Assembly: GCA_965197905.1 (NCBI GenBank)
Contig: CBDAOB010000005.1
Span: 32,001-96,000, forward strand
Reading direction: 5' to 3'
Source of the DNA: Candidatus Latescibacterota bacterium
Lineage (GTDB): Bacteria; Latescibacterota; UBA2968; UBA8231
DNA length: 64,000 bases
Made by a program: the position numbers and the translations under genes. Shown here in pieces: positions 15,450-38,100 of this stretch. The number at the start of each line of letters is the position of its first letter. Positions within the stretch are counted from its first letter, which is position 1. The notes beneath the pieces were generated by a model that was given only the letters and a program-made list of their open reading frames with translations, was not told where the DNA came from and did not search any database.

Positions 15450-15551
15450 GCTGATTCCACCCACTGAAGACCTCGTTCACAGATTCCGGTGAGACTCTCA
15501 CCCTCTTTCGGAGGGTTGGCGCTAGCCAGCCAGTGGAGGGAACAACAGTTC

Positions 15552-17533
15552 ATGAAATCACCCAAATCAGACGCTCAACAAACCGACGAATCGATACAGG
15601 ACGGACTGGCCCATTACCAGGCCGGACGACTGCAACAAGCGGAAACCATCTTCCAATCCATCTTGCAGGAACATCCCCAACATCCCGACGCCTTGCATCT
15701 GCTGGGAGTCCTCAAACATAGAGAAGGAGACCACGAAACCGCCGTCGGTCTGATCGAAGAGGCCATAAAATCGAACCCGACGGCACCGGCCTTTTTCAAC
15801 AACTGCGGTGAAGTCTATCGTGCATTGCAAGACTACGATTCGGCCATTGCCCGCTATGAGCAGGCCCTTGCCCTCAATCCGAAATACGCCGAGGCGTTCT
15901 ACAACCTGGGGATCACCCTTAACCAACTGGGCCGGCACGAAGAGGCTATCGAGCGCTATAAACAGGCCCTTGCCCTCAAGCCGGGCCATGGCAAGGCACA
16001 CAACAACCTGGGGAATGCGCTACGGAATCTGGGCCGTCAGGAAGATGCCCTTACCCACTATGGTCAGGCCCTTGCCATCCGGCCGAACTACGCCGAGGCG
16101 CACTACAACCTGGGGAATGCCCTCCAAGAGCTGGGCCGTCATGAAGAAGCGATCGCTTGTTACGAGCGCGCCGTTGCCATTGAGCCCGACTTCGCCGAGG
16201 CATACAACAACCTGGGAAACGCCCTCCATAAGATCGGACGGCATGACGAAGCGATTGTCCCCCTCGAACAAGCCGTTGCCCTCAAGCCGCATCTTGCCGA
16301 GGCGCACAGCAACCTGGGAAATGTCCTGCAGGAGCTGAGCCGGCACGACGAAGCCATTGCCAGTTACGAGCAGGCCCTCGATCTAAAGCCAGATTTCGCC
16401 GAGGCACATTACAATCTGGGAATTCCCTCCAGGACCTGGGCCGGCAGGAAGACGCCATCGCCAGTTACGAGCAGGCTCTTGTTCTCAAGCCTGACCACGC
16501 CGAGGCGCGAAGAAGTTTGACCCTGATCAAACCAAGTCCCGATCAAATTCCGCTGTTGGAAAAGCGTCTGACAGACCCGTCAACATCAGAGGAAGACGCG
16601 ATCCACCTGCATTTCGCGCTTGCCGATCTTTTCGACCAGGCCAATTCCTGCACCGATGCATTTGAACACGTGAAGAAAGCCAACGACCTGAAACGAAAAA
16701 CGATCACCTATGATGCGCGACAGCATTCTGTTTTTGTAGACCGAGTGATCAAGACCTATGCGACAAGCTTTTTCGAAACCAACACTGCGCGCGGGTCCGA
16801 TTCGGAACTGCCCGTATTCATCGTTGGCTTACCACGCTCCGGAACTACCCTCGTAGAACAGATTGTATCTAGCCATCCGCAGGTGTTTGGAGCGGGCGAG
16901 CTTGGATCTCTTATGGCCATTGAAGAAGGGATATCCAAAGAGATAGAAACATCGCGCCCTTACCCGGAGGGAATTTCGTCTTGCAAGGACTCAGTCGCAG
17001 CTGAGTTTTCGACCAGATATCTGCGTGAGCTGCGCGAGTACTCGCCGTCCGCAATCCGAATTACCGACAAGATGCCGAGCAATTTTCTCAGGATTGGTCT
17101 TATCAAAATCCTGTTCCCGAAGGCGCGCATCATTCATTGCAAACGCAATGCGCTCGATACCTGTACTTCTATCTTTCTGAATTATTTGGTAAAAGGTCAT
17201 GATTACTCCTTCGACCTAGAGGAGTTAGGGCAATATTATCTGGACTACGAGAGATTGATGAGACACTGGCGCGGCGTGGTCGCCGATGAAATATTCGAAG
17301 TGCAGTACGAAGAATTGGTTACGGATCAGGAGTCGGTTAGCCGGCAACTCATCGAACATGTCGGATTGGAGTGGGATGACACCTGCCTCGATTTTCACGA
17401 GAACACACGGGTGGTGAAGACGGCCAGCAATCTGCAGGTGCGCAAGCCGATGTACAAAAACTCGATCAACAGATGGCGGCGGTATGAGAAACAGCTGGCA
17501 CCCCTGGTAGCAATGCTCGATACCCACATCTGA
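15552..17533 (+). CDS. TPR-repeat sulfotransferase (Sulfotransfer_3-like), about 660 aa; frameshift at ~16418
   Basis: About nine 34-aa TPRs (AEAHYNLGNAL); FIVGLPRSGTTL, DKMP, TASNLQVRKP; adding one G to the G run in CTGGGAAT restores LGNSLQDLGRQ and joins ORF 16517-17533. Confidence 0.85.
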
Positions 17534-17909: not shown

Positions 17910-17917
17910 GAGTCAGC

Positions 17918-18217
17918 ATGAACAAGGACGGCCTGCCCCCGATCCATCCCGGAGAATTTCTGCGTGAGATTCTGGAGGAGTTGGACATTTCTCAAGCTAA
18001 GTTCGCTCGCGCCATCGGCATTTCGCCAATGCGGGTGTCACACGTGGTGAACGGAGCGCGACCTGTGACGGCCGAATTAGCGCTCCTGTTTAGCAGGGCC
18101 TTCCATCATCAATCGCCGCAATACTGGCTCAATCTGCAAGCTGCGTACGACTTGAAAACCACCGAAACGGCCATAGCCAAACAGCTGAGAGCGGTCCCCG
18201 ATCTTTCGTCTGTTTGA
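17918..18217 (+). CDS. higA: HigA antitoxin (Xre-type HTH)
   Basis: PIHPGEFLREIL..YWLNLQAAYDL; own AGGAG RBS at 17908-12. Confidence 0.9.
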   Translation: MNKDGLPPIHPGEFLREILEELDISQAKFARAIGISPMRVSHVVNGARPVTAELALLFSRAFHHQSPQYWLNLQAAYDLKTTETAIAKQLRAVPDLSSV

Positions 18218-18545: not shown

Positions 18546-19622
18546 ATGCTGCCTACCGAATCTCACTTCGACTCTACCCATACGCCTGACCTACCTCCAC
18601 TTCTAGCCGAACTCGGCATCACCCTCGCCGTCACTACCTACCAGGCTGGCAAGGTGATTCTCATCAGCTCCGACGGCCAAGGGTTGCAGCATCTGCCGCG
18701 CACCTTCGACACCCCGATGGGCATGGCGGTCAAAGAGAACCAGATGGCGCTGGCGCTCAAGGACCGGATCGTGCTGCTGGCCAACGAACCGCGCCTGGCC
18801 GCGAGCTATCCAAACAAACCCAGCTACTACGATTCGCTGTGGGTCCCACGCTCGGTGCATTACTGCGGCGAGCTCAACGCCCACGACCTGGCCTTCGGTG
18901 AAGACGGCCTGGTGGGTGTCAACACCCTGTTCTCCTGTCTCTTTCGACTCGACGAGCAACACAGCTTCGTTCCGGTCTGGGAGCCGCCGTTTATCAGCGC
19001 CCTGGTCTCCGAGGACCGCTGCCATCTCAACGGCCTGGCGCTGGCGCCGGGAGAAGGCGAACAAGCTCTGGTGTCGGCATTGGGCACGAGCAACGAGCGC
19101 GAGGGTTGGCGCGAGAACAAGATGGAAGGGGGCGTGTTGATGAGCGTCCCGGAGGGCGAGACGGTGCTAAGCGGTCTGCCCATGCCCCACAGCCCCCGTT
19201 GGATCGGGGGCGAGCTCTATCTGCTGCTCTCCGCCCGCGGGGAGCTGGCAGTGGTGGATCTCGACGACGGCAGTTACGAGGTGATCCAGCGGGTTCCCGG
19301 ATTCGCACGAGGACTGGCCTTTCACGGCGACTATCTATTCGTCGGCGTGTCGCGTTTGCGGCCGGGCCGGATTTTCGGTGACGTGCCGCTGGCGGAGGGT
19401 GACACCAAGTGCGGCGTGGCGGTGGTGCATCGACCGAGCGGAGCGCTGATGGGCATGGTCGAATACACCTCCTCCTGCGAGGAGGTCTACGATGTGCAGG
19501 TGCTCGCCGGCATGCGCAGGCCGGGCATCCTCGGACTGGAAACCCCGACTCACCTGAGCTCGCTCTCGATTCCGCAAGAAACCTTCTGGATGGCGCCTGA
19601 TGCTGAGGAAGATGAGGGCTGA
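18546..19622 (+). CDS. TIGR03032/DUF4915 family protein (function unknown)
   Basis: TTYQAGK, HDL, VNTLFSCL, WEPPFIS, EDRCHLNGLA, MPHSPRW, PGFARGL, EEVYDVQV motifs. Confidence 0.9.
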   Translation: MLPTESHFDSTHTPDLPPLLAELGITLAVTTYQAGKVILISSDGQGLQHLPRTFDTPMGMAVKENQMALALKDRIVLLANEPRLAASYPNKPSYYDSLWVPRSVHYCGELNAHDLAFGEDGLVGVNTLFSCLFRLDEQHSFVPVWEPPFISALVSEDRCHLNGLALAPGEGEQALVSALGTSNEREGWRENKMEGGVLMSVPEGETVLSGLPMPHSPRWIGGELYLLLSARGELAVVDLDDGSYEVIQRVPGFARGLAFHGDYLFVGVSRLRPGRIFGDVPLAEGDTKCGVAVVHRPSGALMGMVEYTSSCEEVYDVQVLAGMRRPGILGLETPTHLSSLSIPQETFWMAPDAEEDEG

Positions 19623-19729: not shown

Positions 19730-19954
19730 TTAACCAGCTTCTTCCCATTCCAGGACTGGTTTTCGATTGCTGGATACACAGTCGCGCAAATAAAGATTGA
19801 TCAGATTTTGGTATGACATGCCGGTTTCGTCAGCCAGCGCTTTGAAGTAGTCGATCACGTCCACCCCCAAGCGGATTGTCACCTGTTTCTTAAGGCGACT
19901 CGCAAAAGGGTTCTTGCGGCGCTTCATTCTGGAAAGGTTGTATTCTCTCTTCAT
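19730..19954 (-). CDS. brnA: BrnA/CopG-type RHH antitoxin
   Basis: MKREY..KKQVTIRL..DVIDYFK..GMSYQNLINLYL. Confidence 0.85.
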   Translation of the reverse strand: MKREYNLSRMKRRKNPFASRLKKQVTIRLGVDVIDYFKALADETGMSYQNLINLYLRDCVSSNRKPVLEWEEAG

Positions 19955-20238
19955 GACTCCTCCAGGTACTCGGCCCGCTCCTTTTTCGTTGGTTTGCGGG
20001 CAGATATAATGCGGATAACGGACTCCTCATCTCGAAAGCAGTGCACGACTACCAAAATACGGAGCTTGGAGCTGCAGCCCAGCATCAGAAAGCGGTCTTC
20101 TCCGAGCACATCGTCATCAAAGAACTGCAATGCATGCTCGTCGAAAAAGACAGTCTGAGCCTCTTCGAACGAAACGCCGTGTTTCCTTTGATTCGCCTTA
20201 TTCTTGGCTTCGTCCCAATCAAACTGCAGATCTGCCAT
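19951..20238 (-). CDS. brnT: BrnT toxin
   Basis: FDWDEAKNKANQRKHGVSFEEA..EDRF..IRIISARK; 4-bp overlap with the antitoxin; start placed at MADLQF. Confidence 0.9.
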   Translation of the reverse strand: MADLQFDWDEAKNKANQRKHGVSFEEAQTVFFDEHALQFFDDDVLGEDRFLMLGCSSKLRILVVVHCFRDEESVIRIISARKPTKKERAEYLEES

Positions 20239-20245
20239 CTTGGAG

Positions 20246-20268
20246 TTAATTATAATATACTTATACTG
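20246..20268. promoter_or_regulatory. AT-rich patch with overlapping divergent TATAAT boxes
   Basis: ATTATAAT palindrome: TATAAT on the - strand at 20249-54 (10 nt before the brnT ATG) and on the + strand at 20251-56. Confidence 0.5.
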
Positions 20269-20287
20269 TAGTGGACAGCTTGGAATC

Positions 20288-20425
20288 GGACAAATATTGG
20301 ATATCTCGCTGTGCTGCCAGTGCCGTGAAGCGGAAGTCGGGTCGGTCGCCATCGATCTCAACCGAGACGGGGTCATCGACGGCGGCGATCTCTTTATCGG
20401 TGACGCAGACAGCGATGATAACTGA
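20288..20425 (+). pseudogene. Degenerate 3' remnant of an additional giant-protein paralog
   Basis: GQILDISLCCQCREAEVGSVAIDLNRDGVIDGGDLF vs GQLDISLRGQGREPEKGQVSIDFN at 46033-46105; GGATATCTCGCTG shared at DNA level. Confidence 0.6.
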
Positions 20426-23400
20426 AGCCCACAACGCCAGCATCCACCACCTCAGCGACCGCGCCCTCTACCGCCGCAGCGAAGAGATGCTCTTCGAGGC
20501 GGCGCGGCTGCACTGCACCGGCCGGCGCTCCGGTCTGCGCCGGAGGGTCCGTCGCTATCTCAAGCCGTATCGCCGCGACCGCAACTTTCTCACCTCCCTC
20601 GCCTCGTCGGTGGGGCGGGCATTGGTGGTCGCCTTCCTGTTGGCGCAGCTGTGGGCGACGGAGGTGAACGCCCAGCCTTCCTTCAGTTCCTCCTCGCCGG
20701 CCAACGCCACCCACGCCACCGCGGTTAGCGCCAACATCAGCGCCACCTTCACCGAAGCGATCGCCGCCGGCACAGTGTCGAGTACGACCTTTGTATTGCA
20801 CGGCGGGTTCATCGGGAAGCATTCCACCGGAGGTACCGCTAGCACCCACAAGGACGCCACCTACACCGGCGGCGGTACGACGACGCTGACTATCAATCCC
20901 GGGGCCGACTTCGCGCCGGGGGAGCTGGTGAGCGTGTCGCTGACGACGGGGCTGCAGAACGGCAGCGCGCAGGCGCTGACGGCGGCGAAGGTGTATCAGT
21001 TCCGTGCGGCGGCAACGGGCGGGCCGGCGGTGTTCAGCAATGCGTCGCGTGATGTCGCAACCGCGACGAACGATACCCGCGCGACCTCACTGGGTGACTT
21101 GGATGGCGACGGCGATCTCGACCTGATCACCGGTAATAACCTCCAGGTGAACCAGGTGTATCTGGGCAATGGCAGTGGGTCCTTCGCCGCCGGCAACAAC
21201 GTCGAAACCGGGACGACGCTCAGGACCCACGCCACTTCGCTAGGTGACCTGGATGACGACGGCGATCTCGACCTGATCACCGGCAATAACCTCGAGGTGA
21301 ACCGGGTGTACTTGGGCAACGGCAGTGGGTCCTTCGCCGCTGGCAACAACGTCGAAACGGGTACGACGCTCAGGACCTACGCCACTTCACTAGGGGACCT
21401 GGACGGCGACGGCGACCTCGATCTGATTACCGGCAATAACGGCGAGGTGAATCGGGTATATCTGGGCAATGGCAGTGGGTCCTTCGCCGCCGGCAGCGAT
21501 GTCGAAACGGGCACGACGAACAATACCCGAGCCGTGTCGTTAGGGGACTTGGACGGCGACGGCGATCTCGATCTGATTACCGGAAACTACATCGCGGTGG
21601 ACCGGGTGTATTTGGGCAACGGTGACGGCACGTTCGCGGCCGGCAGCGATGTGGAAACCGGGACTCCGCTCAGGACCTTCGCCACCTCATTGGGGGACCT
21701 GGACGGCGACGGCGATCTCGATCTGGCCACTGGCAATCACAGTCCCCAGGTGAACAAGGTGTACTTGGGCAATGGCAACGGCACGTTCGCCGCCGGCAGC
21801 GACTTGGAATCGGGGATAACAAACGCTACTCGATCAACCCCGTTGGGAGACCTGGATGGTGATGGCGACCTCGATCTGATCACGGGCAACTACAGCAATC
21901 AGGCGAACCGGTTGTATTTAAGTAATGGCAATGGCACGTTTGCCGCTGGCAGCAATGCCGCTACGCCGACGAATCAGACCTGGAGCGTATCGTTAGGCGA
22001 CCTGGACGGCGACGGCGATCTCGATCTGATTACCGGTAATGAAGGCCAAGCGAACCGCGTCTATCTCAACAACAACACCAACTTCTCTTCTTCATCGCCA
22101 GCGGTAAACGCCCACAACGCAGCGACCACCTCGAACGTCAGCGCCACCTTCGGCCAATCGATGCAGGCGGCGACGAGCTCGACCTTTTTGGTGCACGGCG
22201 GTTTTACGGGCAAGCGGGCCGGCAGCTACAGCGGCGCCAGCAGTATGACCCTGACCTTCGATCCCACCAACGACTTCCGACCCGGCGAGGTGGTGGATGT
22301 GACCCTGACCGCCGGTTTGAAGAGCACCGCCGGCGATGCTTTTCAAAAGCCGAAGTCCTACCGCTTCCGCGCCACGGCGACCGCGGGGCCGGTGGTCTTC
22401 AGCTATGAGACGAGCGATGTCGAAACGGGTACGACGAACAAGGCCGGGTCCACCTCACTAGGCGACTTGGACGGCGATGGCGATCTCGATCTGATTGTCG
22501 GCAACACTGGCAGCCAGGTGAACCGGGTGTATCTGAATACCGCCAGCGGGGTCTTCGCCGCTGGCAGCGATGTCGAAACGGGCACGACGAACTCTACCTT
22601 TGCCACTTTGTTAGGTGACTTGGATGGCGACGGCGATCTCGATCTGATTACTGGCAATGACAACGGCCAGGTGAACCGGGTATATCTGGGCAATGGCAGC
22701 GGGGCTTTCGCCGCTGGCAGCGATGTCGCTACGCCGACGAACGCTACCCGATCCGCCTCGTTAGGTGACTTGGACGGCGACGGCGATCTCGATCTGATCA
22801 CGGGCAACTACAATAATCAGGTAAACCGGTTGTATTTAAGTAATGGCAGCGGGGCTTTCGCCGCTGGCAGCGATGTCGCTACGCCGACGAATCAGACCCG
22901 ATCTGTTTCGTTAGGTGACTTGGACGGGGATGGGGATCTCGATCTGATTACCGGCAATGGTAGCAGCCAGGTCAACCGAGTGTATTTAAGCAATGGGAAC
23001 GGGACCTTTGCCGCCGGCAGCGATGTCGAAACGGGCACGACGAATGTTACCCTTGCCACCTCGTTGGGTGATTTGGACGGCGACGGCGATCTCGATCTGA
23101 TTACCGGCAATCACAACCAGGTGAACCGGGTGTATTTGGGCAATGGCAGCGGGGCTTTCGCCGCCGGCAGCGATGTCGAATCGGGTACGACGAATAAAAC
23201 CTTTTCCACCTCGTTAGGTGATTTGGACGGCGACGGCGATCTCGATCTGATTACCGGCAATGACAGCCAGGTCAATCGGGTGTATTTGGGCAATGGCAGT
23301 GGTGCCTTCGCCGCCGGCAGCAATGTCGCTACGCCGACGAACGCTGCCCGATCCGTTTCGTTAGGCGACTTGGACTCAGATGGCGATCTCGATCTGATCG

Positions 23401-26400
23401 CTGGTAATTACAGCCAGGTCAATCGCGTATATCTCAATTCGGGCAACAAAGACGGCACCCTGACGGCGAGTGCCACCCTCGACGAGAGCAGCGCCATCGC
23501 CTTGCCGTCGACCGCTACGAGCTCGGGCGCGGCGGTCGATCTGTTCGACTTCACGCTCACCGACGGCGGTGGCGGTGACGGGTTTTCGCTGGGTGTGTCT
23601 AAGATCGTAATCCACACCTCGGGGACCGGTCCCTTCTCCCAGGTTACCTGGCTGCTCAACGGCCCCGACGCCACCAATGTCACCGGTACCTATAGCTCCG
23701 GTACCAACACCATCACCTTCTCCGGCCTGTCGGTCTCGGTGGCCGACGGAGGCAACGAGACCTACACCCTGCGGGGTTATTACGGCACCAACACCGGCCT
23801 GACCGAAGGACAGACCTTCTCGTTCTCCAGCGATGGCGACACCGATGTGACGATGACCAACAACCTCGGGTCGAGCATGGCGATCAGCAGCGCGGCGGTG
23901 AGCAACGGGGTGGCGGCTCAAGTGGGGATTACGGCGACGAAGCTCGCTTTTTCGACACAGCCGGCACCGCTGGCGCTGACCTCGGGCACCCAGCTCGATT
24001 TCACCACCGACCCGGCGGCGACGCTCAAAGACGCCGCGGGCAACCTCGACCTGACAGCGACGACGGTGACGCTGGCGGAAAACGGGGCGGGCACGTCGAC
24101 CTTCGTCAACAACACCGCGACCTCTGCCAGCGGGGTGGCGACCTTCAACGGACTGTTGCTGACCTACAATGCCCTCGACGCTTCGAGCATCGCGTTGGTG
24201 GCCTCCGCCGGCAGCCTGACAGCGACTTCCTCTTCGTTTGCGGTAACCGCCTTTCCCCTGGAGGCCAACAACACCGGGGTGTCCACTAGCGAGGGCGGGA
24301 CCGCGACGATTTCGTCGGACCAGCTGAAATTCACCGATGCTGCCAGCACCAATTCGCAGATCGTCTATACCATAGGCACCGCGCCCGCGGTGGGAGAGAT
24401 CCGCAAGAGCGGCACCGCCCTCGCCGCCAGTGGCACCTTCACGCAGGATGACATCGACAACGGCTTGGTGAGTTACACGCACAACGGCAGCGAAAACTTC
24501 ACCGACAGCTTCACCTACACGGTGTCGGGCAGTGCTGGCTTGTCAACCAGCAGCTTCGGATTCGGTTTCGAGATCGAGCCGGTCAACGACGCGCCTTCGC
24601 TGGACGTGCTGAGGGATGTGCCGGTGGAAGAGGGCGGCTACGTCGTCATCAGCAACGGGTATCTGCGTATCCTCGATGGGGACACCCACGCCAGTAAGCT
24701 GATCTTCACTGTGCAGGCGGCACCGGTCCATGGCCGCCTCAACCAGGGCAGCTTCTCCCAGGCCGACATCGATGAATCGCTGGTGACGTACATCCACAAC
24801 GGCTCCGATTCCAAAGCCGACAGCCTGCTTTTCAGCGTTGCCGATGCCAACGGTCTGGAGCTGATCAGCACTTGGCTACATTTCGTGATTCAGGCGCGCA
24901 ACGATGCACCGGTTATCCCGTCGATCGAGCATCTCTCTATAAAGGAAGGGGAGCTGCTGGTGCTGGACCTTACGGCCACCGATCCGGAAGGCGCATCGGT
25001 GGCGACGACGGTGACTGGACTTCCCACCGGTGCTACGCTGGACGGTACGATCCTCAAGTGGTTGCCGTTGTACGACCAATCCGGCACCTATCCGCTGGGT
25101 GTGGACTACGACGACGGCGAGGGCGGGACCAGCCGGCTGCGCTTCGAGATTCATGTGGGCGAGACCCCGATCCCAATGCTGATGCCGGAACCGAGTCTGC
25201 TGGACTTCGGGGACGTCGCTGCCGGCGAAACGGCGGACCTGACGTTTGTCCTGGTGAACAACGCGCCGATATCGATGGACCTGGCTCCTTTTGCGAGCAC
25301 GTCCGCTTACCTGAAGGTGGTGAGTCCGGCTTTTCCAGTTAGTCTACTGCCGGGCGCACAGTTGGATGTCACGGTGCGTTTCGCAGCCACCGACGACCGG
25401 GTAGAGATGCAGCAGGGCCGACTTACCTGCTCCAGTGAACTTGGTCAGGTGGAGGTGTCTGCCTTGGGTCGCAGTATCTGGTCGCGGCTGGTGGCCGACG
25501 AAGACGAGGTGCGTTTTCTTCCGGCGACCATCGGCGACATCCGCTGGCGCCACCTGACGTTGAGCAATCCCGGGAATCTACCGTTGGATATTTCCACGCA
25601 GCTTCCCGAGGACTCTGCATTCGGAGTCGAGCCGATAAAACTGACCATTCCCGGCGGTGAGGAGCGAACCATGCGCGTCCGTTTCGCGCCCTCGACCAAC
25701 CATCCCGTCGAGACGAGTCTGACGTTGATTAGCGCGGCGGGGCAACTGGACATCCCGCTGCGTTGCCAGGGTCGTGAGCCGGAGGAAGGACCGGTGTCCA
25801 TCGACTTCGACCTGGATCAGGGGAACCAGCAGCAAGACCAAATCGGCGGCGCCACTGCCGGCTTGGTTTACCAGCTACAGCTATATGCCAACGACGCACC
25901 GGCGATCTCGGGGTGGAGTGTGCGGGTCGACTTCGACGCCAGGCAGGTGTCGTACGTGGACGGCAGCTTTGCCCCCGGCGCTTTTCTCAGCCAGCTGGTA
26001 CCCCTGGCCAGCGTCGGCGACGGTTATGTGGAAATCGGTGGCGACGTTCTGGCCCGGCAGCGCGCGGCGTCGGGTAACGGGATCCTCGGCACGCTATCGT
26101 TTCAAGTGCAGGACGGCTTTTCAGAGGAAACCGAGCTGGCTGTCAGTCGCGTAACCTGGCATCGCGAGGACTGGATCGGTCCCGACCGTACCATCGTACA
26201 TGCGCCGGCCAGCATTTCCGCGGTTGATCTGGTTCCCATCGAGGATGGAGATGTTGACGTTCTCAGCGATGCCGGCGGTGGGGACGTCCCTATCGAGGAT
26301 GTAGATGTCGACGTCCCCCTCAAGGTTGGGGATTTCAACGCCGATGGCCGTGTCACCATGGACGATCTGTTTCTGATGGCGGACCAGTTCAATCAGACGG

Positions 26401-26498
26401 TGCCGCCGGCGGAAGTCCGCTTCGATTTCAACGAAGATGGCCGCATCGACAATACTGACGTATTGTTTTTGATCGATCTGATCAAACAGGACCGGTAA
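20415..26498 (+). CDS. Giant surface protein 1 (2027 aa): extended leader, 2x[Ig-like + 7 FG-GAP blades], Ig, 2 cadherin-like/CSPG repeats, Ig, 2 ASH-like domains, cohesin, dockerin/EF-hand
   Basis: 14 GDLDGDGDLD repeats; TFTQDDIDNGLVSYTHNGSE; LDFGDV; GWSVRVDFD..GILGTLSF; DFNADG..DFNEDG; start chosen by alignment with paralogs. Confidence 0.85.
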   Translation: MITEAHNASIHHLSDRALYRRSEEMLFEAARLHCTGRRSGLRRRVRRYLKPYRRDRNFLTSLASSVGRALVVAFLLAQLWATEVNAQPSFSSSSPANATHATAVSANISATFTEAIAAGTVSSTTFVLHGGFIGKHSTGGTASTHKDATYTGGGTTTLTINPGADFAPGELVSVSLTTGLQNGSAQALTAAKVYQFRAAATGGPAVFSNASRDVATATNDTRATSLGDLDGDGDLDLITGNNLQVNQVYLGNGSGSFAAGNNVETGTTLRTHATSLGDLDDDGDLDLITGNNLEVNRVYLGNGSGSFAAGNNVETGTTLRTYATSLGDLDGDGDLDLITGNNGEVNRVYLGNGSGSFAAGSDVETGTTNNTRAVSLGDLDGDGDLDLITGNYIAVDRVYLGNGDGTFAAGSDVETGTPLRTFATSLGDLDGDGDLDLATGNHSPQVNKVYLGNGNGTFAAGSDLESGITNATRSTPLGDLDGDGDLDLITGNYSNQANRLYLSNGNGTFAAGSNAATPTNQTWSVSLGDLDGDGDLDLITGNEGQANRVYLNNNTNFSSSSPAVNAHNAATTSNVSATFGQSMQAATSSTFLVHGGFTGKRAGSYSGASSMTLTFDPTNDFRPGEVVDVTLTAGLKSTAGDAFQKPKSYRFRATATAGPVVFSYETSDVETGTTNKAGSTSLGDLDGDGDLDLIVGNTGSQVNRVYLNTASGVFAAGSDVETGTTNSTFATLLGDLDGDGDLDLITGNDNGQVNRVYLGNGSGAFAAGSDVATPTNATRSASLGDLDGDGDLDLITGNYNNQVNRLYLSNGSGAFAAGSDVATPTNQTRSVSLGDLDGDGDLDLITGNGSSQVNRVYLSNGNGTFAAGSDVETGTTNVTLATSLGDLDGDGDLDLITGNHNQVNRVYLGNGSGAFAAGSDVESGTTNKTFSTSLGDLDGDGDLDLITGNDSQVNRVYLGNGSGAFAAGSNVATPTNAARSVSLGDLDSDGDLDLIAGNYSQVNRVYLNSGNKDGTLTASATLDESSAIALPSTATSSGAAVDLFDFTLTDGGGGDGFSLGVSKIVIHTSGTGPFSQVTWLLNGPDATNVTGTYSSGTNTITFSGLSVSVADGGNETYTLRGYYGTNTGLTEGQTFSFSSDGDTDVTMTNNLGSSMAISSAAVSNGVAAQVGITATKLAFSTQPAPLALTSGTQLDFTTDPAATLKDAAGNLDLTATTVTLAENGAGTSTFVNNTATSASGVATFNGLLLTYNALDASSIALVASAGSLTATSSSFAVTAFPLEANNTGVSTSEGGTATISSDQLKFTDAASTNSQIVYTIGTAPAVGEIRKSGTALAASGTFTQDDIDNGLVSYTHNGSENFTDSFTYTVSGSAGLSTSSFGFGFEIEPVNDAPSLDVLRDVPVEEGGYVVISNGYLRILDGDTHASKLIFTVQAAPVHGRLNQGSFSQADIDESLVTYIHNGSDSKADSLLFSVADANGLELISTWLHFVIQARNDAPVIPSIEHLSIKEGELLVLDLTATDPEGASVATTVTGLPTGATLDGTILKWLPLYDQSGTYPLGVDYDDGEGGTSRLRFEIHVGETPIPMLMPEPSLLDFGDVAAGETADLTFVLVNNAPISMDLAPFASTSAYLKVVSPAFPVSLLPGAQLDVTVRFAATDDRVEMQQGRLTCSSELGQVEVSALGRSIWSRLVADEDEVRFLPATIGDIRWRHLTLSNPGNLPLDISTQLPEDSAFGVEPIKLTIPGGEERTMRVRFAPSTNHPVETSLTLISAAGQLDIPLRCQGREPEEGPVSIDFDLDQGNQQQDQIGGATAGLVYQLQLYANDAPAISGWSVRVDFDARQVSYVDGSFAPGAFLSQLVPLASVGDGYVEIGGDVLARQRAASGNGILGTLSFQVQDGFSEETELAVSRVTWHREDWIGPDRTIVHAPASISAVDLVPIEDGDVDVLSDAGGGDVPIEDVDVDVPLKVGDFNADGRVTMDDLFLMADQFNQTVPPAEVRFDFNEDGRIDNTDVLFLIDLIKQDR

Positions 26499-26504
26499 GG
26501 CCAG

Positions 26505-29500
26505 ATGACCACAGAAGCTCACGACGCAACTATAGCCCACTTGAGCGACCGGGCGCTGTATCGTCGCAGCGAAGAGATGCTCTTCGAGGCGGCGCGGCTC
26601 CACTGCAGCGGCCGGCGCTCCGGCCTGCGCAAGCGGGTGCGCCGCTACCTGAAGCCCTATCGGCGCGACCGGGTCTTTCTGACCTCGCTCGCCTCTTCGA
26701 TTGGGCGGTTGTTAGTCGTCGCCTTCCTGCTGGCGCAGCTGTGGGCCACCGAGGCGAACGCCCAGCCTTCCTTCAGCTCCTCCTCGCCGGCCAACGCCAC
26801 TCACGCCACCGCCCCCACCGGCAACATAAGCGCGACGTTTACCGAGGCGATCGCTGGCGGGACCGTCTCCAGCACAACGTTTGTAGTGCACGGAGGTTTT
26901 ATCGGCAAACACTCTACAGGCGGCACAGCCAGCACGCACCAGGATGCTACCTACACCGGGCAAGGCACGACGACCTTGACCTTTGATCCAGGGGAAAATC
27001 TTACTCCAGGTGAGCTGTTGAGCGTGTCGTTGACGACCGGGTTGCAAAACGGCAGCGCCCAGGCGTTGACGGCGGGCAAAGTATTCCAGTTCCGGGCGGC
27101 GGCGGGAGCGGGTCCGAGAGTTTTCGACAACACCTCCAACAACATCGATACTCCGACGAACGACACCCGCGAAGTGATGTTGGGCGATTTCGACGGCGAC
27201 GGCGATCTGGATGTTGTTGCGGCGAACTATGCTGTCGTGAATCGAGTGTATCTGGGCAACGGCAACGGCACTTTCGCCGTGGGCAGCAATATTGATACTC
27301 CGACCAACAACACGCGACACCTATCGACAGGCGATCTCGACGGCGATGGGGACCTTGACGTGGTCATCGCCAACAACAACCAGGTTAACAGGGTGTATCT
27401 GGGCAACGGCAATGGCACCTTCGCCGTCGGTAGCAACGTAGACACGCCGACCAATGCGACGCTCGAACTAATTCTGGGCGATCTCGACGCCGACGGGGAT
27501 CTGGATCTGGTCACCGGCAATAACAACCAGGTCAACCGAGTCTATCTCAGCAATGGCAACGGGACCTTCGCTACCGGAAACGACGTAGGTACGCCGGCAA
27601 ACGCTACGAGATCGGTCGAGCTGGGAGATGTGGATGCGGATGGGGATCTGGATCTGATCGTGGCCAACTATAATCAGACGAATCGCATTTACTCAGGAAA
27701 TGGCAATGGCACGTTCGCCGTGGGCACCAATGTTGACACGCCGACGAACCAAACCCAGACCGTGCGCTTGGGGGACCTGGATGGGGACGGCGATTTCGAT
27801 CTGGTCGCCGGCAATCGCTATCAGGTGAACCGGGTTTATCTGGGCAATGGCAATGGCACCTTTGCCTCTGGATCCAATATCGACACCCCGACGAATCAAA
27901 CCATGTCCGTCTCGCTGGGGGACCTGGATGGGGACGGTGATCTCGATTTGATCACCAGCAACAACACGCAGGTGAATAGGATGTATCTGGGTACCGGCAC
28001 CGGGACGTTTGCGTCGGGTACAGATGTCGACACACCGACCAATAATACCCGGGCGGTGCCCCTAGGGGATGTGGACGGGGACGGCGACCTGGATCTGGCG
28101 ACGGGCAATTCCACTCAGGTCAACCGGGTGTATCTGAACAACGGAGCGGTGTTTTTGTCGTCGTCGCCGACCGCCAACAACAAAAGCGTGACGACCACAT
28201 CCAACGTCAGCGCCACCTTCAACCAGTCGATGAATGCGGCGACGACCTCGACCTTCCTCGTCCACGGCAGCATGACGGGCAAGCGCGCCGGGTCGTATAG
28301 CGGTGCCAGCAGCACGACCCTGACCTTCGATCCGACCAGCGACTTCAAGTCTGGCGAGCGCGTGGACGTAACGCTGACGACGAGTCTGCAGAACACCGCC
28401 AGCGAAGCATTGCAAACAGCCCGGACATTTCAGTTTGTCGCGGCGGCCAGCGGGGGACCGGCGGTGTTCAGCAACGCGTCGCATGCCGTCGATACGCCAA
28501 CGAATGCTACGCATACCGTGTCGTTAGGGGATCTGGATGGTGACGGCGATCTGGATATGGTTACTGGAAACGATAATCAGGTAAACCGGGTGTATTCGGG
28601 CAACGGCAACGCCACCTTCGCCTCGGGTAGCGATGTCGACACACCGACGAACAGGACTTTTTCCGTGTCGTTAGGCGATCTCGACGGGGACGGCGATCTG
28701 GATTTGGCTACCGGCAATCGCAATCAAGTGAACCGAGTATATCTGGGCAATGGCAGTGGCACCTTCGCCACGGGCAACAATATAGATACCCCAACCAATG
28801 ATTCTACCGCCATATTGTTAGGGGATATGGATGGTGACGGCGACCTGGATGTCGTAACAGGTAATCGAAGTCAAGTAAATCGGATATATCTGGGCAATGG
28901 CAATGGTACTTTCGCTGCGGGCAACGATGTCGATACCCCGACCAACGTGTCCTATTCAGCGCAGTTGGGAGATGTAGATGGGGACGGCGACCTCGATCTG
29001 GTAACGGGCAATAATCCTCAAGTGAACCGAGTATATCTGGGCAATGGCAATGGCACCTTCGCCTCGGGCAACGATGTCGATACGCCAACCAATGCGACCA
29101 CTTTCGTTCAGCTAGGAGATTTGGATGGGGATGGCGATCTGGATTTGGTCGCAGGCAATAACGCTCAAGTAAACCGGATTTACTTGGGCAACGGCAACGG
29201 GACGTTTGCCTCAGGCAACGATGTCGATACCCCAACCAATATAACTTTCTCCATGGTATTGGGGGATATAGATGGGGACGGTGATCTGGATCTGGTCGCG
29301 GGCAATCAGAGTGGAGTGAACCGGATGTATCTGGGCAACGGCAACGGTACCTTCGCCTCGGGCAGCGATGTCGATACGCCGGCGAATCAGACCATATCCG
29401 TTTCATTGGGGGATGTCGATGTGGACGGCGATATAGATTTGGTTACGGGCAATAACGGTGCTGTGAACCGCGTCTATCTGAACAACAATACCAAGTTTTC

Positions 29501-32500
29501 TTCCTCTTCACCGGCGGTCAACGCCAACAATGCGGCGACCACTTCCAACGTGAGCCCTACCTTCACACAGTCGATGAATGCGGCAACGAGCTCGACCTTT
29601 GTGGTGCGGGGCGATATGACGGGCAAGCGCGCAGGTACTTACAGCGGGGCGAGCAGTACGACCCTGTCCTTCGATCCGACCAATGACTTCCGGCCGGGCG
29701 AGCTGGTGGAGGTCACGCTGAAGACCGGCTTGAAGAGCACCAGCGGAGATGCGATGCAACCTCCTCGGGTGTATCGGTTTTTCGGTGCGGCGACTGGCGG
29801 GCCGGCGGTGTTCAGCAATAAGACGCACGATGTCGACGCGCCGACGAACAGTACCCTTTCCCTGCCGTTAGGAGATGTTGACGGGGACGGCGATCTCGAT
29901 CTAGTCGCGGGCAATTCCACTCAAGTGAACCGGGTGTACTTAGGCAACGGCAATGGCACTTTCGCCGCTGGAAGCAATGTCGATACGCCGACGAATTCAC
30001 CCAGTCCGTGTCGTTCGGCGATCTGGATGGCGATGGCGATCTGGATAGTGTCGTGGGCAATTACACTCAAGTGAACCGCTTGTACTTAGGGAACGGAAAC
30101 GGCACCTTTGCCTCTGGAAGCAATGTCGATACCCCGACGAACAACACCTATTCAGGCTTGTTGGGGGATGTGGATGGGGACAGCGATCTGGATCTGGTGA
30201 CGGGCAATGGCAACCAGGTGAATCGGGTGTACTTAGGGAACGGAAACGGCACATTTGCGACCGGCAACAACATCGCTACTCCGACGAATGACACCCGATC
30301 CATGTCTCTAGGGGACTTGGATGGCGATGGCGATCTGGATGTGGTCACCGGTAACAATACTCAAGTGAACCGGGTGTATCTGGGCAATGGCAACGGTACG
30401 TTTGCAACGGGCACCAATGTCGCTACGCCGACGAATAATACCCAGGAAATTCGTCTAGGGGATTTGGACGGGGACGGCGATCTGGATCTGGTCACCGGCA
30501 ATTCCAGTCAGGTGAATCGGGTGTATCTGGGCAATGGCAACGGCACCTTCGCGGCGGGAAACAACGTCGCCACGCCGACAGATCAGACCTTTTCCGTGCC
30601 GTTAGCTGATGTTGATGGGGACGGCGATCTGGATCTGGTCACCGGCAATTCGGGTGCCGTGAACCGGCTCTATCTGGGCAATGGCAACGGCACCTTCGCC
30701 GCGGGTACCAATCTCGATACGCCGACGAATCAGACCCGGTTCGTATCGTTGGGAGATCTGGATGGGGACGGCGATCTGGATATAGCCACAGGCAATCTTG
30801 GCGAGGTTAACCGGGCGTATCTAAATAACAACACCTCCTTCTCCTTCTCCTCCCCCACGGCGAACAACAAAAGTGTGACGCCCACCTCCAACGTCAGCGC
30901 TACCTTCAACAAGGCGATGAATGCCGCCAGCTCCTCGACCTTCCTCGTCCACGGCAGCATGAGCGGCAAACGCGCGGGTACCTACAGCGGGGCGAGCAGT
31001 TCAACATTGACCTTCGACCCGACTAGCGACTTCAAATCCGGCGAGTTGATAGACGTCTCGCTTACCACCGGACTCAAAGCCACGACCGGCGATGCAGTGC
31101 AGCCACCCCGGGTGTTCCAGTTTCGTGCGGCGGCGACGGCAGGGCCGGTGGTATTTAGTCATGTCTCTAATGATGTGGACACTCCGACAAATACCACTCT
31201 TGCTGTCTCGTTAGGTGATATGGACGGTGACGGCGATCTCGATCTCGTTACCGGCAACGTTAGCCAGGCAAACCGGGCCTACCTGAGCAATGGCAATGGA
31301 ACCTTCGCCTCGGGAGCCGACGTGGCCACGCCGACGCATCAGACCCGGGCCGTGCCGTTGGGTGATCTTGATGGAGATGGCGATCTGGATCTGGTTACGG
31401 GAAACTACGGCCAAGTGAACCGGGTATATTTGAGCAACGGCAATGGGTCCTTCGCTTCAGGCAACGATGTGTCCACGCCGACGCATCAGACCCAGTCCGT
31501 GTCGTTGGGTGATGTGGACGGGGATGGCGATATAGATCTCGTCATGGGCAACCGGAATGTCGTAAATCGGGTCTACCTGGGCAGCGGCAGTGGTTCGTTC
31601 TCCTCCGGGACCGATGTGGACACACCGACGGATAACACCGCTAGTGTATCATTGGGTGATTTGGATGGGGATGGCGATCTGGATCTGGTCACAGGTAATC
31701 TTGGTGTCGTGAACCGGGTGTATCTGGGTAAAGCAACGGGATCTTCGCAACGGGAAACAATGTGGATACACCGACTCATCAGACCCGATATGTGTCGTTA
31801 GGTGATTTGGATGCAGATGGGGATCTGGACCTTGTCACAGGCAACAATGGTCAGGCGAACCGTCGATACCTGGGCAATGGCAACGGTACGTTTGCGTCCG
31901 GCAGCGATGTGGCCACGCCCGCGAATGGCACTTTGTCCATTGCGTTAGGGGATTTTGACGGGGATGGCGATCTGGATCTGGCTGCGGGCAATTCGGGGGT
32001 AAACCGGGTGTATTTGGGTGCTGGCAACGGTACGTTCGCATCCGGAAGCGATGTTGACACGCCGGCAAATACCACCCGGGGTATCGCGCTGGGCGATCTG
32101 GACGGAGACCTCGATCTGGATATCCTTGCAGGTAATGACAATACGGTGAATCGCTTTTACCTCAATTCAGGCAACAAAGACGGCTCCCTGACCGCCAGCG
32201 GCACCCTCGACGAGAGCAGCGCCATCGCCCTGCTTGCCGGAGCCGACACCCAGGCCGAAGCGATCGACCTGTTCGACTTCAAGCTCACCGACGGTGGCGG
32301 AGGTGATGGCTTGGCGCTGGCGGTTTCACAGATAGTTGTCAACACCTCGGGAACCGGTCCCTTCTCCCAGGTCACCTGGCTGCTCAACGGCCCCGACGCC
32401 AGCAATGTCACCGGCACCTACAATGCCGGCACGAACAAGATCACATTCACCGGCCTCTCGATTTCCATCGCCGACGGCGCCAGCGAAACCTACACAGTGC

Positions 32501-34821
32501 GCGGTCACTACAACAACACCAGCGGTCTGGTGAACGAAAAGACCTTTTCGCTATCGGTGGACGGGGACACCGATCTGACTACAAGCAACACCGGCACCAG
32601 CATGGTGCTCAGCAGCGCGGCGGTGAGCAATGCCGCCGCAGCCAAGGTTTCAGCGGCGCCGTTGCCGACGAACAACACCGGGGTGCGTTTGTCCGAGAAC
32701 GGCACGGCCTTGCTTTCCACGAGTGCGCTCTCCTTCGCGGATGGTCTCAGCACAAACGCTCAGATCGTCTACACCGTCCAGGTCGTGCCAACAGCGGGCC
32801 GGCTGAGTAAGAGCGGATCGGTTCTTGGTGTGGGCAGCACCTTTGCGCAAGACGATATCGACAACAGCAGGATCAGCTATATGCACGACGGGTCTGAGCT
32901 GTTCAGTGACAGCTTTACGTTCACAGTAACGGGCTCCCTGGGCCAGGCCACCGCCAACACCGTCTTCCCATTTGAGATCGATCCCGTGAACGACGCCCCA
33001 CAGCTAGATGTGTTGCGCGAGGTTCAGGTGGACGAAGGGGGAAGTGTCGTTATCAGTAACGGGTACTTGCGGGTGTTGGACGGGGACTCTCATGCCAGTA
33101 AGCTGAATTTCTCGGTGCTTGAAGGTCCGTTTTATGGTCGCGTCGACCGCAGCAGCTTTTCACAGGCCGACATTGACGAATCACGAGTACGCTACGTGCA
33201 CGACGGATCTGAAAGCCGACGGGACAGTTTGCGTTTCAGTGTCGCTGATGCCAGCGGCGCCCAGTTTGTCAGCACCTGGCTGCGTTTTGCGATTCGGGCG
33301 CTCAACGACGGCCCCATCATCCCGACGATTGAAAATCCCAGCGTAAACGAAGGAGAGCTTCTCGTACTGGACCTGGCGGCTACCGACCCGGAAGGCGCCG
33401 CGATCCAGATGACGGTGACCGGACTTCCCACTGGCGCAACGCTCGACGGCACCATGCTCAAGTGGCTGCCCCTCTATGACCAGGCCGGCACCTATCCGTT
33501 CGCAGCGATTTACGACGACGGTCAAGGCGGGATCAGTCGACTCCGAATCGATATCCAGGTGGGCGAAGCTCCCGTGCCGGTGCTGATGCCCGAACCGGCC
33601 CTGCTGGATTTCGGTGACGTGCCGGCGGGAGAGACCGCGGACAAGACGTTTGCGCTGGTCAATCAGACGCAGGTTGCGCTGGAGCTGGGCCCCTTTTCGA
33701 GCACCTCCGCCAACCTGAGTGTGTTGAGTCCGGCCTTTCCCGTTGGGCTCGACCCGGCAAAGAGGGTGGACATCGCCGTCCGCTTTGCTGCGACCAACGA
33801 CCGCGCCGACCTGCAGCAAGCACAACTGCTCAGCTCGACGAGACTGGGGCCCGTTGAAGTACCGGTCATAGGACGCAGTGTCTGGCGCAGACTGGTGGCA
33901 GACTACACCGAAATCACCTTTCTTCCCGCTGTAATCGGCGACACCCGTTGGAAACATCTGACCTTGAGCAACCCGGGAAACCTGCCGCTAGAAGTCGCTG
34001 CGCAGATTTCGAGCGACAGCCCTTTTGGCATCGAACCCGCCGCCATCACTTTACCCGGTGGTGAAAAGGCGATCATGCGGGTTCGCTTTGTGCCAGTGAT
34101 AGAAGAATCGGTGGAGGCATTATTGGCGTTGACGAGCGAGCTGGGACAAATGGACGTCCATCTACGTGGTCAGGGCCGTGAACGCGAAGAAGGACGGGTT
34201 ACCATCGACTTCAACCTGGCCAATGGGAATCAACAACAGAGTCTCGTTGGCGATGCTATACCCGGTTCCGTATACGTGCTTCAGCTTCACGCCAAGGGAG
34301 CGCCACAGGCTTCGGGATGGAGTGTCCGTGTCGACTACGACTCGGACGCTGTGTCTTATGTTGTAGGCAGCTTCGCCCCCGGCTCGTTTCTCAGCCGCTT
34401 GACACCGCTGGAGCGTGTTGAGCTAGGTTACGTGGAAGTCGGTGGTGATGCCCTGGGTCGAGAGAGTCCAGAATCGGGAAGTGGCATACTGGGCACGCTC
34501 TCCTTCCAAGTCGAAGACGGTTTCTCGGGCGCGACCGAGCTGGCGGTAAGCCGTGTAGCATGGCGTCGAGAAGGTTGGATTGGGCCGGACCGGGACCTGG
34601 TTTATGCGCCGGCCAACATCACTTCAGCGCCGGTGATTTTCTTGAGTGCCGGAGACTTCAATGAAGACGGCAGCGTCGACATCGACGATTTTTTTCTGTT
34701 CGCCGAGCAGTTTGATCGGAGCGTGCCCCCCGCCGAGCCCCGCTTCGATCTGGATGACGACGGTCGCATCGGCCAGGTCGATTTCTTTCTCTTCGCTGAC
34801 CTGGTTGTCCAAGGGTTGTAA
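26505..34821 (+). CDS. Giant surface protein 2 (about 2772 aa) with four 7-bladed FG-GAP propellers; split by two 1-bp deletions (~29997, ~31729)
   Basis: ORFs 26505-30074, 30008-31801 and 31762-34821 join in repeat register to give exactly 4x7 blades; same leader and C-terminal modules as the paralogs. Confidence 0.85.
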
Positions 34822-35152: not shown

Positions 35153-38100
35153 ATGACGACTGAACGTCCCAACGCCAACATAGCCCAGCTGAGCGACCGT
35201 GCCCTCTACCGTCGCAGCGAAGAGATGCTGTTCGAGGCGGCGCGGCTGCACTGCAGCGGCCGGCGCTCCGGTTTGCGCAAGCGGGTGCGTCGTTACCTGA
35301 AGCCGTATCGGCGGGATCGGACCTTTCTCGCCTCCCTCGTGTCTTCGGTAGGCCGGGCCCTGGTCGTTGCCTACCTGTTGGCGCAGCTGTGGGCTACCGA
35401 GGTGAGTGCCCAACCCTCTTTCAGCTCCTCCTCGCCGGCCAACGCTAAACACAACATCACGGTCGGCAGCAACATCACGGCGACTTTCAGCCAAGCGATC
35501 GCCTCCGGTACGGTCTCGAGCTCTACGTTTGTGGTGCACGGTGGGTTCATCGGCAAACATTCAACCGGAGGCACCGCCAGCACTCACAAGGACGCCACCT
35601 ACACCGGCGGCGGCACGACGACCTTGACCATCAATCCAGGGGCCAACCTCGCGCCGGGTGAGCTGTTGAGCGTGACGCTGACGACGGGGCTGCAGAATGG
35701 TAGTGCCCAGGCGCTGTCGTCCGCAAAGGTGTTTCAGTTCCGGGCGGCGACGACTGGTGGACCGGCGGTGTTCAGTAACAATTCGCATAACGTCGATGCG
35801 TCGACCAATGCAACCCGATCAATTTCGTTGGGTGATCTGGATGGCGATGGCGATCTGGATCTGGTCACCGGGGATTACAGTCAGGTAAACCGCGTGTACT
35901 TGGGCAACAGCAATGGCACGTTCGCTGCGGGCAGCAACGTCGCTACGCCGACGAATCAAACCTGGTCCGTGTCACTGGGTGATCTGGATGGAGACGGCGA
36001 TCTTGATTTTCTCGCGGGTAATCGATTTCAGGCAAACCGGGTATACCTGGGCAATGGCAATGGTACCTTCGCTTCGGGCAATAATGCCGATACGCCGGCG
36101 AATTCGACCTTGTCGGTGTCTTTAGGTGATCTGGACGGGGATGGTGATCTGGATCTGGTAACAGGTAATGGGAACTCTCAGGTGAACCGCGTATACCTGG
36201 GCAATGGCAATGGCACGTTTGCTTCGGGCAACAATGTCGATACCCCGGCGAATGTTACCCAATTCGTGTCTTTGGGGGATTTGGACGGAGACGGCGATCT
36301 GGATCTGGTTACTGGAAATTTCAACCAGGTGAACCGGGTATATCTGGGTGATGGCGACGGAACGTTCGCCTCGGGCAGCGATATCGACGCGGCAACGAAT
36401 TCCACTCAGTCCGTGACGCTAGGGGACTTCGATGAGGATGGCGATCTGGATCTGGTTACAGGCGATAATGGCCAGGTGACCCGACTCCATTTGGGCAACG
36501 GCAATGGCTCGTTCGCGGCGGGCAGTGCAATCGCCACGCCTACCAACGGGACCCTCATAGCGTTGGTGGGAGATGTGGACGGGAATGGCGACCTGGACCT
36601 TGTCACGGGCAACTGGAACCAGGTGAACCGGGTGTATTTGGGCAATGGAAACGGAACCTTTTCCTCGGGCAGCGATGTCGACACACCGACCAATCAAACC
36701 TTTAAGGCGTTATTGGGGGATCTGGACGGAGATGGCGATTTGGATCTGGTCGCCGCCAATTATACTCAAGTGAACCGGATCTATCTGAACAATAACACCA
36801 AATTCTCGTCGTCCTCTCCGGCGGCCAACGCCAACAGCGCGGCGACCACTACCAACATCAGCCCCACTTTCACTCAGTCGATGCAGGCCGCCACGAATTC
36901 GACCTTTGTAGTGCACGGCAGTATGACGGGCAAACGCACTGGGACCTACAGCGGGTCGAACAGCACGACCCTGTCTTTTGATTCAACCAAAGACTTCCTG
37001 CCGGGTGAGGTCGTGGATGTAACGCTGACGGCAGGATTGCAGAACACCAGTGGTGATGCAATGCAACCGCCCCGGGCGTATCGGTTGCGCACGGCCGCGG
37101 TACAGGGGCCGGCGGTGTTCAGTAATATCTCTAATGATGTGGCTACGCCGACGAACCAGACCTATTCTGTATCGTTAGGTGATTTGGATGGCGACGGCGA
37201 TATCGATATCGTCGCCGGCAATGCCGGTCCGGTAAACCGGGTATATTTAGGCAACGGCAACGGCACCTTCGCTTCCGGCAGCGATGTCGACACCCCGACG
37301 AATACTACCCGGGCTGTTCCCTTAGGAGATGTGGATGGGGACGGCGATCTGGATCTGGTCGCAGGAAATCAGAATCAAGCGAATCGCGTCTATTTAGGTA
37401 CCGGAAACGGTACCTTCGCCACCGGCAACGACGTCGATACGCCGACGAATCAAACCTACTCCCTGTCGTTAGGAGATATAGATGGAGACGGTGATCTGGA
37501 TCTACTCGTAGGCAATCAGAATCAAGTAAATCGCGTCTATTTAGGCAACGGCAACGGTACTTTCGCCACCGGCAACGATGTCGATGCCGCGACGAATAAT
37601 ACCATTTTCGTATCGTTAGGGGATGTGGATGGGGACGGCGATTTGGATCTGGTCACTGGTGATTACAATCAAGTGAATCGGGTGTACCAAGGCGACGGCA
37701 ACGGCACCTTCGGCTCGCCCAGCAATGTCGACACTCCAACGAATAATACTAATTCCATATCGTTAGGGGATCTAGATAGCGACGGCGATTTGGATCTGGC
37801 CACCGGCAATTTCAATCAGGTGAACCGGATATATCTGGGCAATGGCAATGGCACGTTTGCCTCGGGCAACGATGTCGACACTCCGACGAACGCGACCATT
37901 TCCTTATCGCTAGGGGATGTGGATGGGGATGGTGACCTGGATCTGCTCGCGGGCAATTACAATCAGGTGAACCGGTTTTATTTAGGTATCGGCAATGGCG
38001 CGTTTGCCTCGGGCAGCGATGTCGATACGCCGGCGAACAATACCGACGCCGTATCGTTAGGGGATCTAGATGGTGACAATGATCTCGATTTGGTTACAGG

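Follow-up and report, generated by a model that had tools for sequence, protein, structure and literature searches.

A putative extended signal peptide family on large FG-GAP proteins and its linkage to TIGR03032/DUF4915 genes in Latescibacterota

The 64,000-nucleotide stretch of Candidatus Latescibacterota bacterium DNA analysed here (assembly GCA_965197905.1, contig CBDAOB010000005.1, positions 32,001 to 96,000; hereafter the window) carries genes for four giant proteins that share an N-terminal leader of 84–86 amino acids (aa). Judged from its sequence, this leader belongs to a real, uncatalogued family of extended signal peptides, found on large proteins with FG-GAP repeats. Our preferred reading, to which we give a probability of about 0.5, is that the leader is an extended Sec signal whose Arg-rich extension marks large FG-GAP proteins, ahead of export, for the neighbouring TIGR03032 propeller and its tetratricopeptide repeat (TPR)-linked enzyme, both acting in the cytoplasm.

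The leader family and its cargo

The four leaders start where the original prediction had placed them, each is followed directly by QPSF, and a six-frame hidden Markov model (HMM) search of the window's genome (G000; 6.69 Mb, 91% complete) returned exactly these four copies (E ~1e-50; next match E 0.08). Residue numbers throughout are those of the window leader.

20415..20672, + strand: leader of giant protein 1, 86 aa; residues 1–12 variable, basic core 13–56 conserved; predicted helices 15–33 and 38–52 around G36, hydrophobic region at about 58–81, predicted cleavage between V-N-A and Q
20451..20582, + strand: conserved core, residues 13–56 of leader 1
26505..26762, + strand: leader of giant protein 2, 86 aa; start 6 nt past the stop codon of gene 1
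35153..35410, + strand: leader of giant protein 3, 86 aa
41059..41310, + strand: leader of giant protein 4, 84 aa

The proposal that selection acts on the peptide was borne out. Among the four paralogues, 41 of the 44 core columns are invariant (proportion of synonymous differences, pS, 0.39; non-synonymous divergence, dN, 0.022; ratio to synonymous divergence, dN/dS, 0.04), against 85 of 114 columns in the adjacent Big_5 domain (residues 87–200; dN 0.094, dN/dS 0.11; Fisher p 0.008 for variable columns). The core is thus under stronger purifying selection than its neighbour among these copies, indicating that peptide-level selection on the leader is real. An RNA element was rejected as the source of the conservation, since no Rfam match was found in 14000–47000 and conservation at the protein level extends across phyla.

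Distant leader copies in three other Latescibacterota genomes, G162 (65% identity), G140 (38%) and G102 (32%, from another family), were used to build a profile that was searched against 1.84 billion representative proteins, giving 61 matches at the 50%-cluster level and 70 with a wider profile. Two false matches (P0046, P0073) were dropped from 124 candidate proteins, and the 122 kept yielded 107 leaders non-redundant at 90%; Myxococcota-type rows predominate in this set, some of whose members had also gone into the making of the profile. The family consensus reads R-x-L-x-R-R-C-E-x-x-L-x-x-x-A-R-x-x-W-x-G-x-R-x-x-L-R-R-x-V-R-R-x-x-R-x-H-R-R-D-x-x-x-L, followed by a hydrophobic region (h-region) and A-x-A. 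Near-fixed residues among the 107 leaders are R46 (106), L59 (104), R38 (101), L26 (100) and G36 (94), and the near-invariant core comprises L26, A30, R31, G36, R38, R/K42, R46 and R53, then L59. The named sources are Latescibacterota and Myxococcota, two members being named Myxococcota by NCBI, and the leader types of the two phyla align with an hhalign probability of 96.8% (E 2e-10). Identity across phyla is 24–41%, and the family spans at least two phyla.

Searches of the leader against Pfam, NCBIfam and PDB sequences gave nothing meaningful, in keeping with a leader outside the characterised families, and the ESM Atlas held no usable match for either leader type. No leader was found in plasmids or in viral contigs, and none at E 1e-5 in 233 genomes of other phyla (14 candidates scored per genome). 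A search for genomes of the Myxococcota-type lineage gave no strong match among 232 candidates, and three further phyla gave 0/6, 0/191 and 0/6 genomes, none of them known to hold the query. Weak matches in G083, G037, G163 and L020 were discarded as leaders, having internal stops or lying away from the N-terminus.

A start at the internal Met25 was likewise rejected: this Met occurs in 13 of the 107 leaders, and in 80 of them the stretch from column 16 to column 60 is free of Met. The upstream start is supported by gene packing, in that gene 2 begins 6 nt past the stop of gene 1 and, in G002, a genome of the same genus, there is an 11-nt overlap between the first ATG of the leader gene and the TIGR03032 stop codon.

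The AlphaFold model of the leader (predicted local distance difference test, pLDDT, 74; 7 sequences) consists of helices at 15–33, 38–52 and 56–85, and its best match in a fold search (Z 7.1, root mean square deviation, rmsd, 7.8, 75 residues aligned) lies within the background for helical models. The window leaders carry a net charge of +8 to +10 (family n-region median +10), the family median length is 82 aa, and the Kyte-Doolittle means over 15 residues reach 1.5–1.8 for windows starting at 58–70. The cleavage-like site of the original prediction recurs in most of the family, with [AVS]-x-A at the model end in 92/107 leaders versus 166/914 control windows; in one member (P0067) a lipobox-like Cys ends the leader in place of AxA. 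A basic n-region, a hydrophobic h-region and small residues at −3 and −1 are the features of a Sec substrate of signal peptidase I, and the leader is predicted to be a Sec signal cleaved by that enzyme. A metal-binding or catalytic role for the His-Cys pair, which had been singled out as invariant, was rejected; His33 and Cys34 occur together in only 14/107 leaders and are invariant only among close paralogues, column 34 being mostly W, G or R and Cys being commoner at column 22 (74/107).

FG-GAP families were found on 66 of the 70 leader proteins recovered with the wider profile, and on 34 of the 56 proteins for which families were given (best five each) out of the 61 matches, many of which are short fragments. 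The first domain after the leader varies and is unrelated between members, being Big_5 in the window and FG-GAP directly in others. A rough pattern sort of the tails of 56 proteins longer than 600 aa gave 37 PEP-CTERM-like, 5 resembling FlgD or type IX secretion (T9SS) tails, 2 dockerin-like, and 12 other or truncated. With the cargo nearly constant and the first domains and C-terminal anchors varied, the leader goes with the type of cargo rather than with the anchor and behaves as a portable extended signal peptide. It is not required for FG-GAP proteins in general: G000 has 30 open reading frames (ORFs) with at least three FG-GAP-like motifs, five of them from this locus, and the leader occurs only on the four proteins described here. 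Two FG-GAP ORFs (681 and 968 codons) lie in a block present twice, with identical starts (G000:C3 1191737-1196556 and 717010-721829). NxS/T sequons are mildly enriched in the cargo (39, 43 and 30 versus 24.5, 25.9 and 22.4 expected). FG-GAP propellers fold with Ca2+, outside the cell.

The gene cluster and its TIGR03032/DUF4915 neighbour

The leader genes lie downstream of a TIGR03032/DUF4915 gene and of TPR and sulfotransferase ORFs:

15489..17533, + strand: TPR-repeat ORF (15489-16520) and sulfotransferase ORF (16517-17533)
18546..19622, + strand: TIGR03032/DUF4915 protein gene, single copy in G000
20415..26498, + strand: cargo gene 1, 2027 aa; leader, Big_5, FG-GAP repeats, cadherin-like, ASH/Ig, dockerin-like tail
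26505..34821, + strand: cargo gene 2, broken across three frames (26505-30074, 30008-31801, 31762-34821)
35153..40783, + strand: cargo gene 3, 1876 aa, architecture as cargo gene 1
41059..46710, + strand: cargo gene 4, 1883 aa, architecture as cargo gene 1

Cargo gene 2 has frame breaks near 30040 and at 31750–31800, so that three of the four giant ORFs in the window are intact; a relative built in the same way (P0004) is a single protein of 2565 aa. The first break is bridged without gaps in three sequencing runs, and near 31732 two runs show one extra base. The TPR-repeat and sulfotransferase ORFs are read as one TPR-sulfotransferase gene broken by a frame change; contigs from four runs in two studies bridge this break gap-free, but the best-matching of them may derive from the source of the window itself. 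The counterpart in G002 (L008:11112-13110) is likewise two ORFs, broken at a different place. No match to the GT41 glycosyltransferase family was found in the window, and a look-up of the locus listed no RNA sample as containing it.

Several other features adjoin these genes. Just past the fourth giant gene, at 46781-48910, a 709-aa ORF combines a signal-like N-terminus with a T4 gp19 tail-tube-like domain (403–525), and its counterpart is syntenic in G002 (L010:6357-8438). TIGR03032 is flanked in the window by a fusion of a HigB-like toxin domain with a helix-turn-helix and by an opposite-strand BrnT-like gene (17627-18217, 19951-20376); G002 has no insert between TIGR03032 and the leader gene. 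The second cargo gene of G002 (L010:15805-10577, − strand) has lost its first 27 leader residues, forms an in-frame fusion with an enolase-like ORF, and is broken at its 3' end by a transposase-like ORF. In G162, a 128-codon ORF (L034:15361-14978, − strand) is an orphan leader fragment with the core and no h-region, also present in metagenome contigs L018 and L019.

The window's TIGR03032 protein has no hydrophobic signal stretch in its sequence and is modelled as a β-propeller (pLDDT 93) with the invariant motifs D157-x-C159-H160-L161 and P214-H215-x-P217-R218. Its fold matches are generic six-bladed propellers, the best being nidogen (Z 23.7, rmsd 3.0, 241 aligned), with arylsulfate sulfotransferase not outstanding among them at Z 20.2, so that no function can be deduced from the fold. 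The family has at least 7099 sequences, and our literature search, whose coverage excluded subscription journals and bioRxiv supplements, found no paper on TIGR03032, DUF4915 or the leader.

Co-occurrence was surveyed in 168 Latescibacterota genomes. Five have a clear leader (G000, G002, G140, G102, G162), five have a full TIGR03032 gene above the cut-off (G000, G002, G140, G102, G158), and the four genomes with both, from three genera, always have them at one locus. The genes overlap in G002 and lie about 20–40 nt apart in G140, and in G102 cargo, TPR-GT41 and TIGR03032 genes are consecutive. A modifying-enzyme gene is present at three of these four loci, namely the split TPR-sulfotransferase in G000 and G002 and TPR-GT41 in G102; the G140 contig is too short to tell, and none was seen at the G162 leader locus. 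At genus level the overlap is 3/4, with a nominal p of 9e-4 that overstates the case, since kin are not independent. In a tree of 37 rows, the TIGR03032 proteins of these four genomes belong to a single 99/99 clade, in which the G102 and G140 proteins (found with a family-wide HMM) join the window's and outside which the G158 protein and six plasmid copies fall; 17 database rows had been picked as close matches, so that their placement is no test, and the long-branch L043 inside the clade is unreliable. Elsewhere, leader protein P0234 and a close TIGR03032 protein, P0166, have the same sources and an equal longest contig (1,066,424), a hint of linkage outside this genus. We regard the link between leader and TIGR03032 in Latescibacterota as good but unproven.

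TIGR03032 occurs in other contexts as well. In viral contigs, homologues lie in phage-like and giant-virus-like contigs (L072:2057-3121, L073/L074:9971-10990) with no large secreted cargo adjoining. The gene stands beside TPR-GT41 in L071 and beside an RTX/FG-GAP gene in L068, and in L060-L065, L045, L088 and L089 it adjoins a large secreted protein irrespective of how that protein is exported (autotransporter, type I, or Sec with a sorting tail). Cyanobacterial-type copies are fused to TPR domains, and in Diaphorobacter the neighbour is an Asp/Asn hydroxylase-sulfotransferase fusion.

Partner recognition, export timing and descent

If the leader does mark its cargo, the basic extension (about +10) would dock on TIGR03032 or on the TPR domain and/or would delay entry into Sec, and the unfolded chain of 100–250 kDa could be held and modified before export, by sulfation in G000 and by glycosylation in G102. 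The leader would be removed after export, and the propellers would then fold with Ca2+ outside the cell. A more specific form of this proposal, which we put forward as tentative, treats the leader as an address label: a single TIGR03032 clade would read the Arg face of the two helices and hand the cargo to interchangeable TPR-linked writers, after which Sec and signal peptidase would discard the label. Precedents are found in parts of PMC8151025, which describe extended signal peptides that slow export, and HMW1C-type and BAHT enzymes that glycosylate adhesins in the cytoplasm before export.

A number of observations weigh against the marking of cargo by the leader. In all six plasmid loci examined (of 15 records) TIGR03032 lies beside large secreted proteins without a leader (autotransporters, choice-of-anchor Q and IPTL-CTERM proteins), and leaderless neighbours are also seen in G158, L068 and G386 (RTX-type), in G337 (an FG-GAP lipoprotein-like gene) and in G306 (a secreted-looking gene). 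G284 has a high-scoring TIGR03032 with no large secreted neighbour in the 30 kb examined, and in G006, which gave no leader match, a clade-type TIGR03032 fragment lies at the end of a contig. Conversely, no TIGR03032 match was obtained in G162 (92% complete), which does have a leader gene, its leader cargo being short (1193 aa), with the orphan leader fragment nearby. The modifying enzyme varies between loci, G000 and G002 each have a split TPR-sulfotransferase, and the loci with frame breaks may be in decay. Charge complementarity is weak, leader-adjacent TIGR03032 proteins having −11 to −24 and most others 0 to −13 (median −7 for 120 close homologues), and the amphipathicity of the window leader's helices is not significant (p 0.15, 0.22). 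Passages of PMC8151025 also assign little role in targeting to the ESPR (extended signal peptide region) and describe the mechanism of substrate recognition by N-glycosyltransferase (NGT) as unknown.

The leader could instead be a partner-independent export timer, similar to the ESPR, that aids the folding or anchoring of long FG-GAP chains, TIGR03032 being a mere co-inherited neighbour. We find this rather doubtful, although it would accommodate the close association of leader and FG-GAP cargo, the leader of G162 without TIGR03032 and the many leaderless cargoes beside TIGR03032, and although ESPRs slow export without a dedicated partner, according to a section of PMC8151025. Against it, about 25 other FG-GAP-motif ORFs of G000, one of them of 4514 codons, have no leader, and leader and TIGR03032 are both rare in the survey and yet share one locus in four genomes; the conservation of single surface-type residues (E23, R31, R38, R46, R53) would also suit a binding face better than bulk charge. 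The original prediction had offered both partner recognition and export timing; either may fit the present data, and the suggested tie to DUF4915 held within Latescibacterota.

The conservation could also reflect descent and no special function, the leader being a long signal peptide of the ordinary sort that was inherited with one FG-GAP lineage and one mobile cassette, and kept alike by gene conversion. Core dS is 0.54, against a higher 0.89 for the adjacent Big_5/mature part, which makes some homogenisation among the copies possible, and signs of decay (frame breaks, insertion-sequence-like ORFs, orphan fragments) are seen at the loci. In a second comparison, covering 12 relatives that also have Big_5, conservation is higher in the core than in the mature part for eight and lower for four, the latter including three of the four most distant (0.64–0.73 versus 0.81–0.84). 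The near-invariance first described is therefore real among the paralogues but partly a product of recent paralogy, and higher conservation than in adjacent sequence holds for the paralogues and for most, not all, relatives. Among the conditions named in advance as refuting the original prediction, none turned clearly against it. The low dN/dS of the core nevertheless speaks against descent as a full account, as does the retention of spacing and key residues between phyla at low identity, despite the exchange of first domains and anchors, and we judge it unlikely.

Two further explanations concern the signal itself. An uncleaved cytoplasmic domain with a transmembrane anchor, signalling inward, would fit the prediction of a helical unit, about 45 aa long, that precedes a hydrophobic helix; this tail, one of the roles first suggested, is very improbable because the AxA site is conserved and many members have separate membrane-anchor-like tails at the C-terminus, and the lipobox-like Cys of P0067 also argues against it. 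Export of folded propellers through a divergent twin-arginine (Tat) signal has equally little to recommend it. The Tat consensus is S/T-R-R-x-F-L before the h-region, and many RR pairs are present in the leaders, G000 has a TatC gene and a loose pattern (RRx[FGAVML][LITMVF]) matches 26/107 leaders; the strict motif ([ST]RRxF[LIVM]), however, matches 0/107, as anticipated from the imperfect motifs of the window, whose GRRSGL pair is T/S-R in 80/107. The size of the cargoes, which reach 1900–2500 aa, and the need of FG-GAP folds for Ca2+ also speak against Tat.

Comparison with known systems and significance

The nearest parallels to the leader are other extended signal peptides. Like the leader, the ESPR (PF13018) is a conserved N-terminal extension before a canonical-looking signal on large surface proteins, and enzymes encoded alongside some of these type V proteins glycosylate them in the cytoplasm (both in parts of PMC8151025). 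The ESPR is 25 aa long, whereas the leader extension is about 56 aa, predicted helical and Arg-rich, and none of 32 leader members matched PF13018 at E up to 1. ESPR cargo is type V; leader cargo has FG-GAP repeats with dockerin-like, FlgD-like or PEP-CTERM-like tails, and no autotransporter or two-partner secretion (TPS) family, nor an autotransporter barrel, was found in the window cargo or among the families given for 56 relatives (best five each). Serine-rich repeat (SRR) adhesins of the GspB type, exported by SecA2/SecY2, have a signal peptide of about 90 aa, close to the length of the leader, and their genes cluster with cytoplasmic enzymes that modify them before export, as sections of PMC6973325 relate. 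No sequence match links the two, and leader cargo shows no AST domain or LPXTG and, in the window translations, no serine-rich repeat region; G000, from a diderm host, gave one SecA_DEAD match only, no search for SecY2 having been made. The leader would thus function like the ESPR and the SRR-adhesin signal, and by its sequence it belongs to neither.

HMW1C belongs to GT41, and the TPR-GT41 gene of G102, between cargo and TIGR03032, offers a parallel. In HMW1/HMW1C and EtpA/EtpC, too, the adhesin gene is co-located with that of a cytoplasmic modifying enzyme (described in part of PMC8151025). The window differs in that no TpsB transporter was seen, its enzyme is a TPR-sulfotransferase, and TIGR03032 has no counterpart in those systems. 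The leader can also be compared with another class of removable N-terminal segment. The leader peptides of ribosomally synthesised and post-translationally modified peptides (RiPPs) are conserved, sit on variable cargo near genes for modification enzymes, and are read by those enzymes. The cargo here, by contrast, is a folded protein of 100–250 kDa, an h-region and a peptidase I site are part of the leader itself, and no domain that would bind it was identified.

Few families of extended signal peptides are known, the ESPR and the SRR-adhesin signal among them, and parts of PMC8151025 treat their mechanism as still open. The leader adds a separate, uncatalogued family, borne by surface proteins from uncultured phyla and already captured in a profile that can serve for annotation, and provides TIGR03032/DUF4915 with a short, defined candidate ligand. 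Should the leader direct modifying enzymes, it would be a portable tag for the cytoplasmic sulfation or glycosylation of secreted proteins and would extend RiPP-style logic to surface proteins of 200 kDa, including the cytoplasmic sulfation of a bacterial surface protein. The pathway would then be an undescribed form of leader-guided protein modification, whose writers would be a sulfotransferase here and a GT41 glycosyltransferase elsewhere.

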